A stretch of DNA of 64,000 bases from Octopus vulgaris (Eukaryota): assembly GCA_951406725.2 (NCBI GenBank), contig OX597830.1:39060001-39124000 (forward strand), read 5' to 3'. Of this stretch, positions 24,815 through 54,594 are shown in pieces (within the stretch, counting starts at the first letter, position 1; every line of letters starts with the position of its first letter). Position numbers and translations under genes: made by a program. The notes under the pieces are model-generated. The model did no database searches. It was not told the origin of the DNA and saw only the letters and a program-made list of their open reading frames with translations.

Positions 24815-25275
24815 CAGCGAGTTGGCAAATTCGTTAGCATGCCGGACAAAATGTTTCGTGGTATATTGTCCGTCATATAAGGCGGTGAGCTGGCAGAATT
24901 TTTACTGCGCCGGGCGAAATGCTTAGTTCATTTCGTCTGCTGCTACGTTCTGAGTTCAAATTCCGCCGAGGTCGACTTTGCCTTTCATCCTTTCGGAGTC
25001 GATTAAATAAGTAGCAGTTACGCACTGGGGTCGATATAATCGACTTAATCCGTTTGTCCGTCCTTGTTTGTCCCCTCTGTGTTTAGCCCCTTGTGGGTAG
25101 TAAAGAAATAGGTATATTGTCCGTTTTTATGTTCTGAGTTCAAATTCTGCCGCTGTCGACTTTGCTTTTCATCCTACCGTGATCTATGAAATAAGTACCA
25201 GTTGACTATTGGGATTAAGTGTAATCAGCTTAACCTTCCCCAGTAATTAGTGGCCTTGTTTGAAAATTTGAAACC
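24815..25275 (+). mobile_element. Family 'M' SINE with a younger 'M' SINE nested in it (24874-25110)
   Basis: 14-bp TSD GGTATATTGTCCGT at 24860-24873 and 25111-25124; the host SINE resumes after the TSD. Confidence 0.9.
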
Positions 25276-25479: not shown

Positions 25480-25733
25480 CGGAACTACGCACAGCTGATC
25501 GAAAAATGCACTCTCAAAATCCTCCAAAAAGAATAGAAGTAGCAGAAGTGGAAGAGATTGAAAAATGTCTGCATGAAATAAAAGGAAGAACTACCTTCTA
25601 CAATAGAGATAGAAAATACGCTACGGTAGACGTTCGTTTCGAAAATGAAGATGAAGCGAAAAGGAACGCAACGACAGAGTTGAGATCAGAAAAATGGATA
25701 TTACTCCATAGTTATTGCGGTGGAGCTTGGTAA
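25480..25733 (+). pseudogene. Fragment of L1/Tx1-type ORF1 (RRM-like region), paralog of the 29588 ORF
   Basis: RKYATVDVRFENEDEAKRNATTELRSEKWILLHSYCG aligns with VKQATVWLLFDNG*KARQFASQPLEGKEILFLPSYCR of the 29.6-kb element. Confidence 0.7.
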
Positions 25734-26557
25734 AGGAGTTTGAAATAATGGAAGGGATACTTCAATAAAACTTGTCCTCGAAATGTGAAGGGTTTAACTA
25801 CTAACACCCAATTACATTAATATGCACGTAACCACTAGCGTCGAATTTGTATTCTAGGTTCATGAGAATAAGTATAATACATAAAATGTAGTGGATTAAT
25901 TTAACCACAGTGGTAATAGTAGCCAATTAATAGCTTCTACGTAACTGGTTCACATTCTAGAAATAGCTGTGAAATCTGCAAATCAATATCTACCGTTTCA
26001 TTGAAAGGCAGGATAAATTAAAGAATGTCATCGTGGATATCAAAAGTTTGAATCCAAGACTGTGTGATTCATGTCTAGAGCCACATAGACCTTCTATATA
26101 CTTGAGAAGACCCGAACTGGGAAATACAAGGCAACAGTAATATTGGCATCGAGTCAAAATAAGCATTGGCTCATATTAATCCCGTCTGGTGATTGTTGAG
26201 AATTGCACTTCATTCTTCTTGATGCGATAATTATAAGTACTATACATATCATGCAGTCGATTTCATTGTCGATATCGATTCCCCAAACGGAATGACTTTC
26301 GTTTTCGGCAGAAATCAAATTTTACGTAGATATCATTACAAGTAGACTGCAATGGAGGAGGTTTTTATTGCACACAGAACTGTATGGTTGAGACGAGATA
26401 AATTCTAATAACGTATCATTCATACCTTTTCCAAATACTTGTTTTGTATAATTTTGATAGGTAACAAGTGCGAATCACATCTGTGCATCACAATCAATCG
26501 ATTATCTCAGAGAAGTGTTTATATGCAGACCTCATCTCATTTTATATATTACAATGC

Positions 26558-28710: not shown

Positions 28711-29025
28711 TTCTTTTCTTTGTGTCAGTCATTAGACTGCGGCCATGCTAGAGCACCGCCTTGAAGAGTTTTAGTCAAACAAATTGACCCCAGAAATTAT
28801 ATTATTTAAGCCTAGTACTTATATCATCGGTTTCTTTTTGCCGAGCCACTAGATTGGGGAGACGTAAATACAGCAACACCGGCTATATACAACGTGCTTC
28901 TTTCAGATTCCCTCTACCAAATACACTCACAAGGCTTTGGTCGGTCAAAGTGCGACGCCGTGTGACTGAACCCGGTACCACATGGTTGAGAAGCACATTT
29001 CTTACCACATAGCCACGCCTGCGTC
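28711..29025 (-). mobile_element. Family 'C' CORE-SINE (internally deleted)
   Basis: Reverse strand head GACGCAGGCGTGGCTATGTGGTAAG and tail GGCGGTGCTCTAGCATGGCCGCAGTCTAATGACTGAC. Confidence 0.85.
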
Positions 29026-29124
29026 TATATTGACAAAACAATTTTTAAAATGTGAACCTATAGCCAAGTTGGAATATTATCCTCATAGGCGCAGGAGTGG
29101 CTGTGTGGTAAGTAGCTTGCTTAC

Positions 29125-31144
29125 CTAGAATGCAACACTAGTTGGTCTGGACTGTTACAGTGAACAGATGTGAGTTTCGGCTCCGCGAATAGAAAAAAAG
29201 AACAAAAGAAATATTGTCAATTATGGCTCGCTATAGTGAGCAAAATACTGGTTTCTCATCACCGTAACGGTGAATTGAGAATTTTTTTGAAAATTCTTCT
29301 TGTGAATCCTAGTGGGCGTATCTCGCCAGAAAAATAAGAATAAGCCATTTGGATTACCTTTTGGATTACCTTTTTGGAGTATTATACATAAGATTCCCTG
29401 TCTGTGCTATTTGTGAGGTTTTCCTTTACTTTTCCCTTCTATTTTTTCTTTCTTTCTAAATTTTGGTTCAGTCTTTTCACTACTTTAATTTCAGTTTCCT
29501 CCCCTCCTCTTTTATTTTGTTTTATTTTTATTCGGTTTAATTTTTTGGCAGACTGTCTTTTGAACTACTTTTGAACTGTTTTTTGACATGGCAGAGAAGG
29601 AACTTAAAAAGAAAAACTCTGTCTTAGAGTGGGAAATTAACCCGCCTAAGCAATGGTTAAAAGATATGGAGGAGAAGACGATGGTACTTAAAACGTATTC
29701 TAAAGTTCTTAATTCCATCACTGTCTTCCCAAAACAAGTCATAAAAAATTAACTTAAAGAACATTTGTCATCTGTAAAATATATATCCCGTGGTGTCAAA
29801 CAAGCAACCGTATGGTTGCTGTTTGACAACGGGTAAAAGGCTCGCCAGTTTGCGAGTCAGCCTTTAGAAGGCAAGGAAATTCTGTTTCTCCCGTCATATT
29901 GTAGAAGAAAATTAATACGAGCCTGGGTATGTGGGCTCCCCCCGGGCACCGAAGCGGATTGGATTGAAGATGCCATCCGACGGGGACTGGGAGATGGCGG
30001 GCCCAGGCTCTTAAATGTAGGAATATTGCCGGCGGTCGATTGGGAAGGGTAAAAAGCGATTTTGACCCTGTGGAACCCATCGGCCGCAACAGAACTGATT
30101 TTTCCAGATTTCTTGAAAATGGCTGGCTGCAGGTATCCGGTGATACTTGAGGGACGTCCCCCAAAGTGTCACTCGTGCCTGCAGCCAGGTCACATTAAAA
30201 GGAACTGCCCCAGGACCATGGTAAGGTCCTGGAACAGTCACTAGATGCCACCTCCCCTACCTGGTCAAAGGGAGAGGTGGATGTCATCGAGGAGGCTTCA
30301 GCCTCCTCAACTCAAAAAGGATTAAAAGGGAAGAAGGAACCTAAGGCTTCGGAAGGCGGGGGAGAGTCTCCGGACAAAGCGGAAGAGCTCCACTCTCCCG
30401 AAGCCAGGAAGAAAAGAAAAAAAAAGGAAGAAGAACGGGTCATCTCAGCGGGGAGATGATGTGCCGACTGCATGTCCCGAGGTTGTGCCACCCACAGTGG
30501 AAGAAACCACCCAACTCTTAAAGATGATCAATTAATTATCTTTTTCTACAAGGGCGGGGAGGTGGAAAAAATAGTAGAAGAACATAAAGAAACAGTAGAT
30601 ATGCCCTTCACACGGGATCCCGAATGGCCCCCGCAGATAGCTGTGGAGGTCATAAGGTTTCCCTTGTGGGAAAGGCTTAAAGAATTTGGGGAGCAGTGTC
30701 GCATATGGCCGGGTGGCCCTTACACGACTTACAAGTCCTACATGAGTGAAGCATGAGAAATGGCGGGATACAGGAACTCAAGCGGCATTGAAGATAATGA
30801 TAAATATATCGATGGATATATCGAAGATTAGGAGGTGAAAGACCCTCGTTACAGGGTTTGAAACCTCATCTTATCGGATTATTTTGTAGTGGTTTATAAC
30901 CTCAATTTTGTGGTTTAAGAAAGAAAAAAAGAAAACATGTTAAGTAAGAGGTTTTAGTGCCTCCTCCCTGTAAGAGATTCGAAAACTCAAATTGATTTAA
31001 AAAAAAAAAGGAAAATATGTTTTCGAGAAAAATCCAATCGGTGGGTGTCTCTCATTTATTCATTAAATTTCATTTTCATTCATTAATGTATTTGTCCAGC
31101 CTGCAAAGCTCTTTGTACTGTCCATATGACAAATTTATGAAATA
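29125..31144 (+). mobile_element. ORF1-only non-LTR retroelement (HAL1-like; L1/Tx1-type ORF1)
   Basis: Perfect 15-bp TSD AAGTAGCTTGCTTAC (29110-29124, 31145-31159). Ends in AATAAA; 5' UTR ~460 bp; single degraded ORF; no RT or endonuclease sequence recognised. Confidence 0.85.
29588..30756 (+). pseudogene. Gag-like ORF1 protein (two RRM-like segments + CCHC zinc knuckle + charged tail), disabled
   Basis: One frame from ATG 29588 (MAEKELKKK...RAWVCGLPPG...YPVILEGRPPKCHSCLQPGHIKRNC) carries three in-frame TAA stops. A frameshift near 30244-30277 continues it to TGA 30756 through one more stop. Confidence 0.8.
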
Positions 31145-32284
31145 AAGTAGCTTGCTTACAAACTACATGGTTCCGGGTTCAGTCCCACTGTGGGGTAGCT
31201 TGGGCAAGTGTCTTCTACTATAGCCTCGGGGCGACCAAAACCTTGTGAGTGGATTTGGTAGAGGGAAACTGAAAGAAACCCGTCGTATATATGTATATGT
31301 ATATGTGTGTTGGTGTTTGTGTGTCTGTGTTTATCCCCCCACCAACATCGCTTGACAACTGATGCTGGTGTGTTTATGTCCTCGTAACTTAGCGGTTCGG
31401 CATAAGAGACCGATAGAATAATTACTAGGCTTACAAAGAATAAGTCCTAGGGTCGATTTGCTCGGCTAAAGGCGGTGCTCCAGCATGGCCGCAGTCAAAT
31501 GACTGAAACAAGTAAGAGAGTCATTGATAGTGGATTGGCGGAAACAAATAAACATCTGAGGAAAATCTTTGTTGTATGTATACGGTATTTTCGCTTCCGA
31601 ATTAAAATTCTACCTGAATTAATTGTGGCTTTTTTTTTCTTTCTTTCCGGGATCGATAAAAAATACGAGTCAAGTACAGCTATCACTTTAATGAATAAAA
31701 ACACTGCCAGTATTTTTGTTTGGTCTTGTGCCAATGTTACTAATCAACATAACTGATAAGCAGGACAGCGATAATATGTTGGACATTAGCACTGCAATAT
31801 AATTGCCTATTTATGTTCTTAAATGCCGCTATGCTCAACTTTTGTCATCTCTCTAGGGTTACTGAAATAAAATTCTAGTCAGGTGCTAGGATGAACGCTA
31901 TATACGTAAATATTTTTCCAACGTATACGCAATAATGGTAAAGCTAGAAAACAATATTTTATATGTCATTAACATTTTTTCACTTATTCTTTTCGGTTCA
32001 TATTTCATTTCTTAGATTTTGGTCTCCAGAGTGTCTGGCTATCAACGTATAATTCTTCGATAATAAAGGCGGAAAATTGTTAAAGACACCTGCATTAACA
32101 CAATATACCGCTTCAATAATTTTCACACAATTGCAATATGTGACTTATTATACCACAAAATGTCACATATGAATGTGCGTCTATGTGAGTATGTGTCAGG
32201 ATGTGAGGCTGTATTATGAATATACTAATATATACAGATACACATATGTGTTTGTATTTGTATATAAATATGTATACACAAAGT

Positions 32285-32920: not shown

Positions 32921-33531
32921 GTTTTGGCACACCGTCGCTTACGACGATGAGGGTTCCAGTTGATCCGATCAACGGAACAGCCTGCTCGTGAAGTTAACGT
33001 GCAAGTGGCTGAGCACTCCACAGACACGTGTATGCTTAACGTAATTCTCGGGTGTAACAAGGCTGGCCCTTTGAATTACAGGCACAACAGAAACAGGAAG
33101 TAAGAGTGAGAGAAAGTTGTAGTGTAAGAGTACAGCAGGTTCTTATTTCTTTATTGCCCACAAGGGGCTAAACTTTGAGGGGACAAACAAAGACAGACAA
33201 AGGGATTACATCGACCCCAGTGCGTAACTGGTACTTAATTTATCGACCCCGAAACGTGAAAGGCAAAGTCGACCTCGGTGGAATTTGAACTCAGAACGTA
33301 AAGACAGACGAAACTCCGCTAAGCATTTCGCCCGGTGTGCGAACGTTTCTGCCAGCTCGTCGAGTACAGTAGGGTTCGCCAGTATCCCCTGCCGGAGCTT
33401 CGTGGAACTTTAGGTGTTTTCGCTCAATAAACACTCACAACGCCAAGTCTTGGGATCGAAATCGCGCTCCTATGACCGCGAGTCCGCTGCCCTAACCACT
33501 GGGCCATTGTGCCTTCACAGTCGGCGCTTCC
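32921..33531 (-). mobile_element. Family 'R' SINE with a nested family 'M' SINE (33140-33361)
   Basis: Inner TSD GAGTACAG(C/T)AGG at 33128-39 and 33362-73; outer direct repeat GACTGAAATAT at 32910-20 and 33532-42. Confidence 0.9.
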
Positions 33532-34819: not shown

Positions 34820-34823
34820 TAAA

Positions 34824-35150
34824 GGCGTAGGAGTGGCTGTGTGGTAAGTGGCTTGCTTACCAACCACATGGTTCCGGTTTCAGTCCAACTGCGTGGCACC
34901 TTGAGCAAGTGTTTTCTAGTATAGCCTCGGGCCGACTAAAGCCTTGTGAGTGGATTTGGTAGAGAGAAACGGAAAAAAAGCCCGTCGTATATATGTTTTT
35001 GTATATATATATATATATATGTGTGTATGTGTGTGTGTGTGTGTTTGACAACCGATGCTGGTGTGTTTACGTCCCCGGTAAAATAAGTACTAGGCTTACA
35101 AAGAATAAGACCTGGTGTCGCAGTCAATTGATTGAAACATGTAAAAGAAT
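34824..35150 (+). mobile_element. Family 'C' CORE-SINE
   Basis: GGCGTAGGAGTGGCTGTGTGGTAAG...CACCTTGAGCAAGTG... Confidence 0.9.
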
Positions 35151-36363: not shown

Positions 36364-37262
36364 GTTTGACTTTTGCTTTATGTTTGTACAAGTTGGCTCC
36401 AAGTCTCACCCAGAGACCTCAAGAGACAACAGGTTGGAAGTTCAGGTTGTTGTTATGCCCAGTGTGCCATATATTCGGGGGGGGGAGGTTGTTTGTGTTG
36501 TACTAGTGAATGTCTAATAAATAAATTAAAAAAACAAGAAGTTTGTATTAAACCTTGAGATTACATAGAGAGTATTTTGCGTAGGATATGAGCAGTTCCC
36601 ATGAGCACTATCTTTTAAATTTCTGCCATTTTGGGGTTTCCTGGTATCTAAGTTACGTAGTAATCAGCCCCTTTCGCTATCATTCCCAGGGCACCCATGA
36701 CAACAGGTATCGTTTTAGTCTTCAGGTTCCACGTTTTGCTGATTCCTATTTCAAGATCTTTATATTTGCTCAGTTTTTGGTAGGTCTTGACAGATGCGTT
36801 TATATCAATTGGGACAGTCATATCAACGAGGAGGCATGTTCTTTGTCTGAAATCTTTCAATATGATGTCTGGCCTGTTTGCATCTAACTTTCTGTCAGTT
36901 TGAAGGGTGAAGTTCCAGAGGAGTGAGGTGTGGTCAATTTCAAGCACTGGAGGTGGTTTGTGTTCCCACCATTTTTTTTCGTGGGGTAAATCCAGGTTTT
37001 TGCAAATTACCCAGTGAATATATTGTGCAGCTCTATCATGCCTGTTGAGGTACTGTGTAGGCGCTAGAAGACTGCACTTGGAGACAACATGATCAATGGT
37101 TTCATTTTGTTGTCGATATACACGACATGTTGGGCTACTGCCGTTCTTTAATATGTTGGCCTGGTAGTTTCTTGTTGGTAGGCATTGATCTTGAGCTACT
37201 ATGATAAATCCTTCTGTTTCAGATTTTAAGCCAGATTATTATTATTATTATTATTATTATCA

Positions 37263-37303
<41 letters not shown>

Positions 37304-37963
37304 TTAAGCCAGAGGCCATTAGCCATTGATGGGTCAGGGCTTTGTCAATATCTGCATTATTCGCTCTCTTTGGGTATTTGCCATAGAGAGGTTTTTCTTG
37401 CCATTTATTATTCAGAATATATAAGGCCACAGTTTTGACACGTTTTTTCATGCGCTTAGCTTTTTCTGTGCTTGTTTCTTGTATGACTATCTCTAATTCC
37501 GAAATTTGTTGTATTCGGAATTCACTTAGATATTCCTTTGCCTGTTTTGTTACTGAGCATGATGCTTTCTTGTTTTCATGTTTTGAGACAAGTTTTAACA
37601 TCCAGTCCTAAGACTTTTTCAGATAGGTGTCTAGGCCAATTGTAGCAATCTTCATTGTCATTGCCAGTTGTAAAAGACCACGGCCTCCCTCTTTTCTTGG
37701 CAGATAAAGTCGTTCTGTATCTGCCTTAGGGTGGTGCATTCTATGCATTGTCAACAGTTTTCGTATTTTTCTGTCAAGCTGACATATTTCAGTAATTGAC
37801 CGGTTAACGATATTGAAACTGTAAGTCACGACTGGTATGGCTAATGCATTGATCGCTTCGATCCTGTTTCTTGCATTCAGCTCTGTCTTGAGTATTGCTC
37901 TCACTCTTCGATAACATTCTCTCCTGATCCTTTCCTTCATCTCTGAATACCTTATTCCGTCCC

Positions 37964-37964
<1 letters not shown>
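36364..37964 (-). mobile_element. 5'-truncated R4/Dong-like non-LTR retrotransposon (RT thumb, CCHC finger, REL endonuclease)
   Basis: Motifs RLYLPRKEGGRGL, WQEKPLYGKY, GLKSETEGFII-AQDQ, ETIDHVVSKC, RHDRAA, RPDII and KLSKYKDL. Both ends abut (TAA)n, the known Dong target. Confidence 0.9.
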
Positions 37965-38026
<62 letters not shown>

Positions 38027-38033
38027 CATTATA

Positions 38034-38080
<47 letters not shown>

Positions 38081-38279
38081 CATTATTATTATTATTATTA
38101 TTATTCTCTGCCTGGAATCGAACTCAGAATCTTGGGGTTAGTGGCTCGCGCTCTTAACCACTACGCCATATGTCCATGGGCGCAGTGGTTAAGAGCGCGG
38201 GCTACTAGCCCCAAGATTCCGAGTCCGATTCCAGGTTGTGACCTGAATAATAATAATAACGATGATGATGATGATGATG

Positions 38280-46779: not shown

Positions 46780-48075
46780 TTGTTCATGCAGGATCCGCGA
46801 CATTTACCCAGTAGAAAGCCGCTGCGCAACCAAAGGCGTCGTCTTTCAAGCTGAGGTGCGGGCAAATCCAACCAATTCCACCGGCAGGAACCATAGCAAT
46901 CATAGCAACCGTAGACACGGGGGCAGAACCATCAACTGAGCCAGCAACACCGCCACTACCACCACCACCACTACCATTACCGCATCGAACCGCCTTACGA
47001 ACGTCAACAACACCAACACCGACAGTGCCGACTTCACCCCTGACTACACCACCACCATCATTAACATTGACCACAGTGACGTTGCCTCCAACGCCAGCCT
47101 TACAAATAGCAGGCACGACAGCCTACCTATTTCTTTATTACCCACAACGGGCTAAACACAGAGGAGACAAACAAGGATAGACATAGGTATTAAGTCGATT
47201 ACATCGACCACAGTGCGTAACTGGTACTTAATTTATCGATCCCGAAAGGATGAAAGGCAAAGTCGACCTCGGCGGAATTTGAACTCAGAATGTAAAGCCA
47301 GACGAAATACCGCTATGCCTTTCGCCCGGCGTGCTAACGTTTCTGCCAGCTCGCCTGCTCTCATAGCAGCAGTAACAGACCAAACTATATCGGCCGCAAT
47401 ACCAACAGCAGAAGCAGCAGCAGCGTCCCAAGTAGAGGCACCGGCATGGGCGAGAATAATGGTAGCCCTGTCAACGAGAACGATACGTCCACCACCGGGG
47501 AAGATGACAATAATAGCAATAATAACATTTATGGTAATACCTGCGGCTACTGTGATAACATCGATAGCGCCCCCTCCACATTCGGCAATAACATTACCAA
47601 CACCGCCACCACACCCACCTTCACCATCACAAGTGGACCCAGCAACATCCTTGACGACAGCACCATCAACAACTAGAGCAGCAACATATTCGTCGACCAT
47701 AACGGCAGCATCGTCGACACCACCAGCAACAATAACAGCAGCAGTAGCAGCAGCGTCATCAGCGGCAGCAGCAGCAGCAACAGCGCCTGCAGCAGCAACA
47801 GCAGCAGCAGCAACAGCGGCAGCAGCAGCAGCAACAGCGGCAGCAACATCAACCTCGGCAGTCTCAATAACACCAACACATACACCAGCGGCAACACATG
47901 CAGAGGCAGTAACACTACCAGTGGCACCACCACCAACATCCCCAGCTCTAGCACCATCATCGGCAGCACTAGCAGCAGCAACAACAGCAACAGCAATAAC
48001 AACAGCAGCAACAACAGCAACAGCAATAACAACAGCAGCAAGAACGGCAACAACAGCAGCAGTAATAGACACAAC
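46780..48075. repeat. Triplet-rich (GCA/ACA/CCA) low-complexity tract inside the Penelope relic
   Basis: Directly visible; it produces the 353-aa and 340-aa antiparallel ORFs. Confidence 0.85.
47128..47355 (-). mobile_element. Family 'M' SINE inserted in the Penelope relic
   Basis: Near-identical to 33140-33361. Confidence 0.92.
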
Positions 48076-48704
48076 ACCGACTCCATGCATCCAAAGAAAT
48101 ACATTGGATGCGCGGGAACTTCCTTTAAGAAACGTCTTTCCAACCATAGATACTCTTTCAGGGTCTCCGCTGGCTAGCCATACTTTGCAACGGAAAGAAA
48201 ATGGAATTCTATACTCGATATCATGGAAAATCCTCCACCGTCCGGGTCCGTACATAAATGGAACGAGACGCTAAATGCTATAAGTAGCCGAATGCATGAT
48301 ATTCGCGCGTACCAGAGATCATACTGAACTCCACAACGGAGATTTTCGGACATGCTTGCATTTCAGGTGATTCCTGTTAGCGTTTTGGGAACTGCATAAT
48401 TGCAATGTTACATATCGATAGCGATATTAGCTGGGGATTGATTGTTGATGAGAGTAGGGGATAACCACCTACCTTTTACACTCATAGCCGACAGGTGACG
48501 TGAATGAAGGGGGACGACACAGCTGAAGCCAATGACCTGTACCAAAGAGAGATAATCCCCATTGTTTATACCCGTATCGTTCCCCCTACTCCATTTTTTA
48601 AGAGGCCATAGGCCAACAGGTCTTAGGCTCTGAAGATATGCCATAAAGGTACCCTTTATGAGGGTAAACCCTGGGTAACCCTATAAACTGCCATTCACCA
48701 TTAA

Positions 48705-53451: not shown

Positions 53452-54594
<1,143 letters not shown>

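Follow-up and report, generated by a model that had tools for sequence, protein, structure and literature searches.

What occupies the middle of a SINE-like repeat in this 64-kb window (the window being the whole stretch of DNA analysed), and what brought it to that position? An insert of 2,020 bp (29125-31144), on the + strand like all features given below, is bracketed by two identical 15-bp direct repeats (29110-29124 and 31145-31159) and, as an earlier note on this DNA had described, lies between an A-box-like and a B-box-like stretch of the repeat (29098-29108 and 31176-31186). The 5' portion of the host tRNA-like SINE occurs at 29088-29109, with the insertion point right after 29109, and the 3' portion at 31160-31519, where the end is approximate. 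The two stretches were labelled with what we take to be the A-box and B-box consensus. ARAGORN identified no tRNA gene in six of six SINE-head loci, and Rfam returned no meaningful match. Octopus OR1 is listed as a CORE-SINE in the accessible text of PMC4824008.

The window element is a dead copy of an octopus ORF1-only jumping-gene family. Its 463-bp 5' UTR (29125-29587), which is replaced by a different 5' end in at least four family copies, is followed by a single ORF1, broken in this copy (29588-30831, with the ATG at 29588 and the stop at 30829-30831), and by a 3' UTR lacking poly(A) (30832-31144). A disabled ORF of about 390 codons and a 3' UTR of about 390 bp had been proposed. The ORF is indeed disabled, but both lengths have to be revised: the stop at 30829-30831 is common to 30/30 aligned family copies, whereas the one at 30754 is private to the window copy (1/30), so that the family ORF has about 424 codons and the 3' UTR 313 bp. 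The ORF1 span is 1,244 nt in the window copy, compared with 1,258-1,276 nt in most of the others, and the reading frame is interrupted here by four premature stops (29750, 29834, 30050, and 30754) and four deletions (1, 27, 2, and 1 nt near 30207, 30332, 30423, and 30509, respectively). As expected from the earlier reading, no ORF2 is present, tblastn of the ORF2 of the autonomous partner described below giving no match anywhere in the window. The terminal AATAAA is also present (31141-31146), but it runs across the element/target junction, extending into the 3' target copy, with no poly(A) behind it; the two A's at the junction are not assignable by sequence to either element or target.

The proposed RRM-RRM-CCHC layout of the ORF1 protein agrees with structure prediction and sequence. 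The AlphaFold2 model obtained with 16 natural unbroken sequences contains two beta-alpha-beta-beta-alpha-beta domains and a knuckle (mean pLDDT 65.5, pTM 0.48). The two predicted RRM-fold domains comprise residues ~20-105 and ~107-190 (29645-30157); their top Foldseek match is the tandem RRM of hnRNP A1 (E 4e-5), the low TM being due to a different domain arrangement, and in VIA many RRMs are tied at Z 7-8. This predicted fold suggests that the ORF1 protein binds RNA. The CCHC zinc knuckle (30167-30208) is read from the sequence and is the only Pfam match of ORF1 (zf-CCHC, E 0.022 for copy L017, below the curated cut-off); the same profile matches the partner ORF1 with an E of 4e-5. The EGRPPK-CHSCLQPGHIKRNC motif is found in ORF1, as reported, and a basic low-complexity linker leads to a C-terminal region of ~104 codons (30517-30828) whose conservation is seen in the alignment and in the selection analysis. 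The PDB sequence search with ORF1 gave no convincing homologue, and L1 ORF1p is absent among the Pfam, PDB-sequence, and fold matches listed. One close database homologue was retrieved, an uncharacterised Octopus sinensis protein (68%), and the named profile relatives are octopod proteins.

The substitution pattern indicates that this protein was formerly functional and under purifying selection, as the earlier note had anticipated: pN/pS falls as variants are shared by more copies, and dN/dS between families is below 1. Single-copy variants behave neutrally, with a pN/pS of 0.87 in the 215-codon core and 0.82 in the C-terminal 104 codons, while in the core the ratio is 0.26 for variants found in 3-5 copies and 0.09 for those in 6 or more (singleton versus shared variants, Fisher p 1.2e-6). 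Between ORF1-only families, using unbroken ORFs only, dN is 0.18-0.38 and dN/dS ~0.04-0.32 where dS is finite, dS being saturated. Naturally open ORF1-only sister elements of 415-421 codons exist.

The genome search gave 50 matches, the best 40 of 2,048 candidates being scored, and the expected multi-copy family of constant length was recovered: 21 of the 30 fetched loci, window copy included, are full-length, so that the window copy has at least 20 full-length companions of ~2.05 kb at 89-94% identity, located on many contigs. The mean pairwise K2P is 0.063; half of this value, at the octopus rate of 0.0036 per My given in the accessible text of PMC13282606, corresponds to a crude family age of ~9 My, which is inflated by subfamily structure. 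Many other ORF1-only families, mostly 1.9-2.4 kb long, are found at the same target site. A quick ML tree was built from 48 ORF1 cores. It groups 35 ORF1-only-type rows, the O. sinensis protein among them, in a single clade (SH-aLRT 100) separate from every sampled autonomous ORF1; it has a midpoint root and long-branch warnings, and for a few rows the flanking sequence is not long enough to rule out an ORF2. The topology points to one old origin of the ORF1-only families, followed by a long separate history.

The main feature of the system, absent from the first reading, is strict insertion at one SINE base. Among 30 loci chosen by their 3' UTR alone (last 185 nt), 29 terminate at one and the same SINE base, and a SINE head lies upstream of 28/30 family loci when a loose match is allowed. 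These 29 loci, and all 20 loci of the autonomous family described below, place target preference above the 20%-of-flanks criterion found in the available portion of PMC4494074. The empty target, searched as a degenerate 29-mer, has 81,920 exact matches (control 0), and the 3' junction has at least 701 exact matches, or at least 1,191 under a less strict pattern (the controls giving 0 and 1, respectively). In a census covering 90 of the 100 junctions listed first, 11 of them with only 1.5 kb of flank, 49 ORF1-only and 13 ORF2-bearing elements were counted, and no ORF was seen in the other 28. The elements also occur in tandem at the site (L097; L192 with L211-212; L215), the second of these stacks combining seven units of 2 kb with an adjacent autonomous element; they can stack because each insertion leaves an intact target. 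Concerning the 5' side, 38 of the 90 census junctions were scored without a 5' target, a scoring that undercounts, as L091, L108, and L172-174 do have heads. A remainder of junctions lacking a 5' SINE head has no explanation in our model.

Candidate helpers were found at the same target. Four census loci are full-length two-ORF elements of 5.1-5.5 kb, and ORF2 similarity retrieved 20 loci, corresponding to 19 members of a young autonomous family and one older relative. They have the target at the 3' end in 20/20 cases and at the 5' end in 19/20, and seven of them show an open ORF2 frame of 1,140-1,150 codons. The partner ORF2 (1,133 aa) contains Exo_endo_phos, RVT_1, and zf-RVT domains, i.e., an APE endonuclease, a reverse transcriptase, and a C-terminal zinc finger, and its best PDB match is human L1 ORF2p (9e-67, versus 2e-20 for R2); on sequence grounds, the autonomous partners are assigned to the L1/Tx1 group. 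A CCHC motif in ORF1 is typical of Tx1. Since no named Tx1 reference is present among the 120 listed ORF2 homologues and the clusters checked, the term Tx1-like rests on the CCHC-containing ORF1 and on target specificity, which suggest that the partner belongs to the Tx1 clade. Its ORF1 shows ~25% identity to that of the window family over both RRMs and the knuckle (E ~1e-13), and no autonomous element with a closer ORF1 was found among the best 34-66 candidates scored per genome search. An Argonauta RT query led to a different young family, inserted at (ATT)n tracts, whose ORF1 falls outside the ORF1-only clade and whose ORF2 is 61% identical to that of the SINE-targeting autonomous family. 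The autonomous element and portions of an ORF1-only sister are represented in contigs from four presumed-RNA runs, which give no strand, level, or ends.

A search for an autonomous L1/Tx1 element sharing the last ~60 nt of the insert had been suggested as a check, and such elements were found, with a shorter stretch in common: the hairpin described below, the junction, and the last ~35 nt align, but blastn of the insert against either young autonomous element gave no match below E 0.05. The young autonomous elements are therefore only candidates for the partner that was active when the window family spread.

The direct repeats also proved less simple than a perfect 15-bp TSD. Two identical copies are indeed present in the window, but in full-length copies of related families the 3' part of the 5' copy (29110-29124) is element-borne. 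In full-length L121, L124, and L189, the 5' copy is the family's own variant and the 3' copy a different one, so the 5' end of the element RNA probably contains target-like sequence. Position by position, the 5' and 3' copies of the window family agree about as well across copies as within the same copy, and in short copies truncated at the 5' end the SINE head is still present, together with a TSD of at most ~15 nt. The 3' copy (31145-31159) is native SINE sequence: one young family is found in SINEs of two subfamilies (14 and 8 rows), and the variant seen in its 3' copy shows linkage with four diagnostic SINE-subfamily sites located downstream. We also considered that read-through RNA could overwrite the 3' target copy, which this linkage rules out.

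We conclude, with high confidence, that the insert belongs to a multi-copy ORF1-only element that inserts at one SINE base and likely borrows the endonuclease and reverse transcriptase of same-site autonomous elements of the L1/Tx1 group. The transcript would start within the 5' target copy and run through the junction AATAAA into SINE-derived target sequence, and the element's own ORF1p would package this RNA in cis. The partner ORF2p, acting in trans, would bind the 3' hairpin, nick the SINE immediately past the A box, and start target-primed reverse transcription. Target sequence read through into the RNA would help to set the exact start of reverse transcription, and this would account for the lack of poly(A). 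A second cut ~15 nt downstream would then duplicate the target and regenerate the landing site, making stacking possible.

Two 3' signals are potentially involved in this process. The first is a 4-bp hairpin ~13-25 nt from the end (31119-31131 in the window), common to ORF1-only and autonomous elements. Over 43 rows, 92% of the cells are paired and 8 two-sided changes are observed versus 1.8 in shuffles; the window family carries a two-sided C-G to U-A change. This covariation is supportive but not proof: only four pairs are involved, seven of the eight two-sided cells represent one change in related families, and 15 of 57 dereplicated ends, including some in which the stem is broken, were removed on visual inspection, so that the figure is biased upward. 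The second signal is a motif complementary to the target (31103-31110, eroded in the window subfamily). A reverse complement of the target of at least 6 nt is present in 66/79 element ends, against 23% in shuffles and 1-27% for non-overlapping 16-mers of the SINE, and the mean energy of the motif-target duplex is -12.1 versus -6.5 kcal/mol.

The most serious alternative concerns this second signal: the RNA itself would help to choose the site, the motif pairing with the top strand of the target and the read-through tail with the nicked bottom strand. In addition to the 66/79 ends, the motif lies at a different distance from the end (~80 nt in autonomous and ~45 nt in ORF1-only elements) and in different flanking sequence, and the (ATT)n sister family has the SINE-target motif in 0/10 copies but shows a 7-bp match to its own junction; annealing of RNA to target has been proposed for SART1Bm and R1Bm in the accessible text of PMC7265360. 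That annealing is nevertheless to the bottom strand, and an intramolecular stem with the read-through tail, predicted in 3/3 folded examples, explains the same pattern. Moreover, the element ends are related, so the counts are not independent, the match of the (ATT)n sister is weak (-5.4 versus -3.5, sd 1.5) with its 10 copies representing nearly one observation, and the window family spread on the target with an exact match of only 5 nt, versus 7-10 nt in many sister families, although its predicted fold still pairs motif and tail. We regard guidance by RNA as improbable. The same low standing applies to the broader scenario of an old radiation of coding passengers and LINE helpers at a single base of a SINE promoter, in which the RNA engages both target strands, the read-through tail priming on the nicked one and the complementary tag holding the displaced one. 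If true, site choice by APE-type LINEs would be partly RNA-guided and could shift with the tag, as the (ATT)n sister hints. Most likely, the site is set by the endonuclease, and the target-complementary motif folds back on the read-through tail.

A second alternative is that SINE head, insert, and SINE tail travel jointly as a composite unit, the SINE tail being the part through which it is mobilised. The same SINE flanks indeed surround nearly every copy, several families have a 5' target copy of their own, and some copies have no 5' SINE head. Nevertheless, divergence is 2 to 10 times higher in the flanks than in the inserts, and the two correlate poorly (r 0.03 and 0.23). The downstream SINE halves differ by 5.3% in young autonomous copies, versus 0.5% over the last 300 nt of the elements (16/18 usable), and by 10.7% in the window family, versus 5.3% for the insert ends (24/28), which shows independent insertions into pre-existing SINEs. 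The presence of one young family in both SINE subfamilies, the SINE head directly upstream of truncated copies, and the stacking of unrelated families at the site also speak against joint movement, which we judge very unlikely as a general explanation, although it could apply to a minority of headless copies. The remaining reading, in which the insert is either a lone, internally deleted LINE copy or a processed host-gene pseudogene, is suggested by the disabled window copy and by the annotation of its sole close homologue as an uncharacterised O. sinensis protein, and retains practically no probability, because the 20 or more same-length copies on many contigs, the missing poly(A), the homology of the ORF to ORF1 of autonomous elements, and the single clade of 35 ORF1-only-type rows in the quick tree describe a multi-copy, selected family of fixed length.

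With the SINE-targeted ORF1-only family as the preferred reading, each insertion separates the A box from the B box; one SINE copy would thereby be silenced, the element landing in low-cost DNA. Selected ORF1-only families, some with open copies, together with a young helper having an open frame, make it testable why ORF1 is kept in cis and ORF2 borrowed. For site choice by APE-type LINEs, a compact LINE that lacks poly(A), uses a defined target of ~30 bp, and has a 3' signal that can be separated also offers a tractable model. Our literature search, with Repbase/Dfam, subscription papers, and supplements outside its scope, found no description of a SINE-targeting LINE or of an ORF1-only Tx1-type element in octopus, and the combination of an ORF1-only passenger with site-specific insertion into a SINE was not found in print. 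The available text of PMC13282606 reports 13 recently active L1-Tx1 families in octopus and mentions neither targets nor ORF1-only elements; these families may include sequences of the system described here.

Several known systems share parts of this behaviour, as far as the accessible portions of the sources describe them. Dada DNA transposons also insert at a Pol III A box, but they differ in their class, in their 6-bp TSD, and in targeting real tRNA genes (PMC3706591). Mutsu, Keno, Dewa, and Kibi/Koshi, targeting 5S rRNA, U2, a tRNA spacer, and microsatellites, respectively (PMC5340908, PMC3706591, PMC4494074), resemble the octopus autonomous elements in being site-specific two-ORF LINEs of ~5.5 kb. 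Mutsu inserts ~20 nt into a Pol III gene, a position similar to that of the octopus target, and the microsatellite targets of Kibi/Koshi recall the sister family at (ATT)n tracts. Their targets are, however, host genes or simple repeats, and ORF1-only passengers are unmentioned in these portions. Closer still are the transposon-targeting Tx1 elements, namely Xenopus Tx1, found in Tx1D, and crocodilian Tx1-Mar, Tx1-8_Crp, and Tx1-4_AMi, with the passenger SINEU-3 (PMC4494074). As in octopus, the target is an abundant mobile element, the TSD is ~16 bp, tandem insertions sandwich the TSD, and non-autonomous passengers use the same target; in contrast, insertion is into DNA transposons or LTR elements and the passengers have no coding capacity, whereas the octopus elements use a SINE head and have passengers encoding a selected protein.

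Regarding the passenger itself, HAL1, HeT-A, and Ag-Sponge, whose origins lie in the L1, Jockey, and CR1 clades (PMC5786205), similarly encode ORF1p only, have a LINE-type 3' end and a fixed length, and need an autonomous partner (PMC5753468, PMC5786205). The earlier description as a HAL1-like family is thus apt as an analogy, given the ORF1-only coding capacity, the fixed length with TSDs, the selected ORF1 homologue, and the terminal ~35 nt common with the partner, but not as HAL1 membership, because the nearest named relatives are octopod proteins. The octopus element is set apart from these three by an RRM-RRM-CCHC ORF1 of an octopus lineage within the L1/Tx1 group, by the lack of poly(A), by strict insertion into a SINE, and by its many families with saturated synonymous sites.

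Seven ORF1-only units with a spacing of about 2 kb precede one autonomous element in the genomic loci L192, L211, and L212 (G000:C1, about 223.689-223.709 Mb), all of them within a single SINE. Four other elements of 1.0-2.2 kb (L131, L168, L107, and L106) extend from the SINE head to the junction with a slight or absent ORF1 match, and are possibly non-coding passengers or rearranged copies.

Within the family of the 2,020-bp insert, the copies L022, L024, L026, and L030 have a longer 5' end of another type, similar to that of other ORF1-only families, which suggests that 5' UTRs have been exchanged. At about 25500-25750 (+) of the window lies an isolated, diverged ORF1 fragment that belongs to a family other than that of the insert; its match, with E 5e-13, is to the profile's first RRM.

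A second SINE-like repeat, at 24950-25110 (+), has a terminal tail that aligns with the autonomous elements at their 3' end (three motif matches in the window, including those at 33176-33194 and 47160-47178 (-), versus none in 100 shuffles). This similarity suggests that the repeat may be a SINE moved by a relative of the same LINE group. Related SINE copies with an intact head lie at 34823-35120 (+) and at 28712-29028 (-); the latter is inverted and precedes the host SINE by about 60 bp.

The open frames at 36648-38123 (-), 54022-54579 (+), and 47156-48274 (+) comprise pieces that look like decayed retroelements, one of them with a GGRGL motif, and one low-complexity Ala/Thr-rich frame.

The young autonomous sister family, L201-L210, has an ORF2 frame of 1,145 codons, forms tandem arrays of about 5.9 kb, and has its element ends at (ATT)n tracts, which is a target switch inside one lineage.
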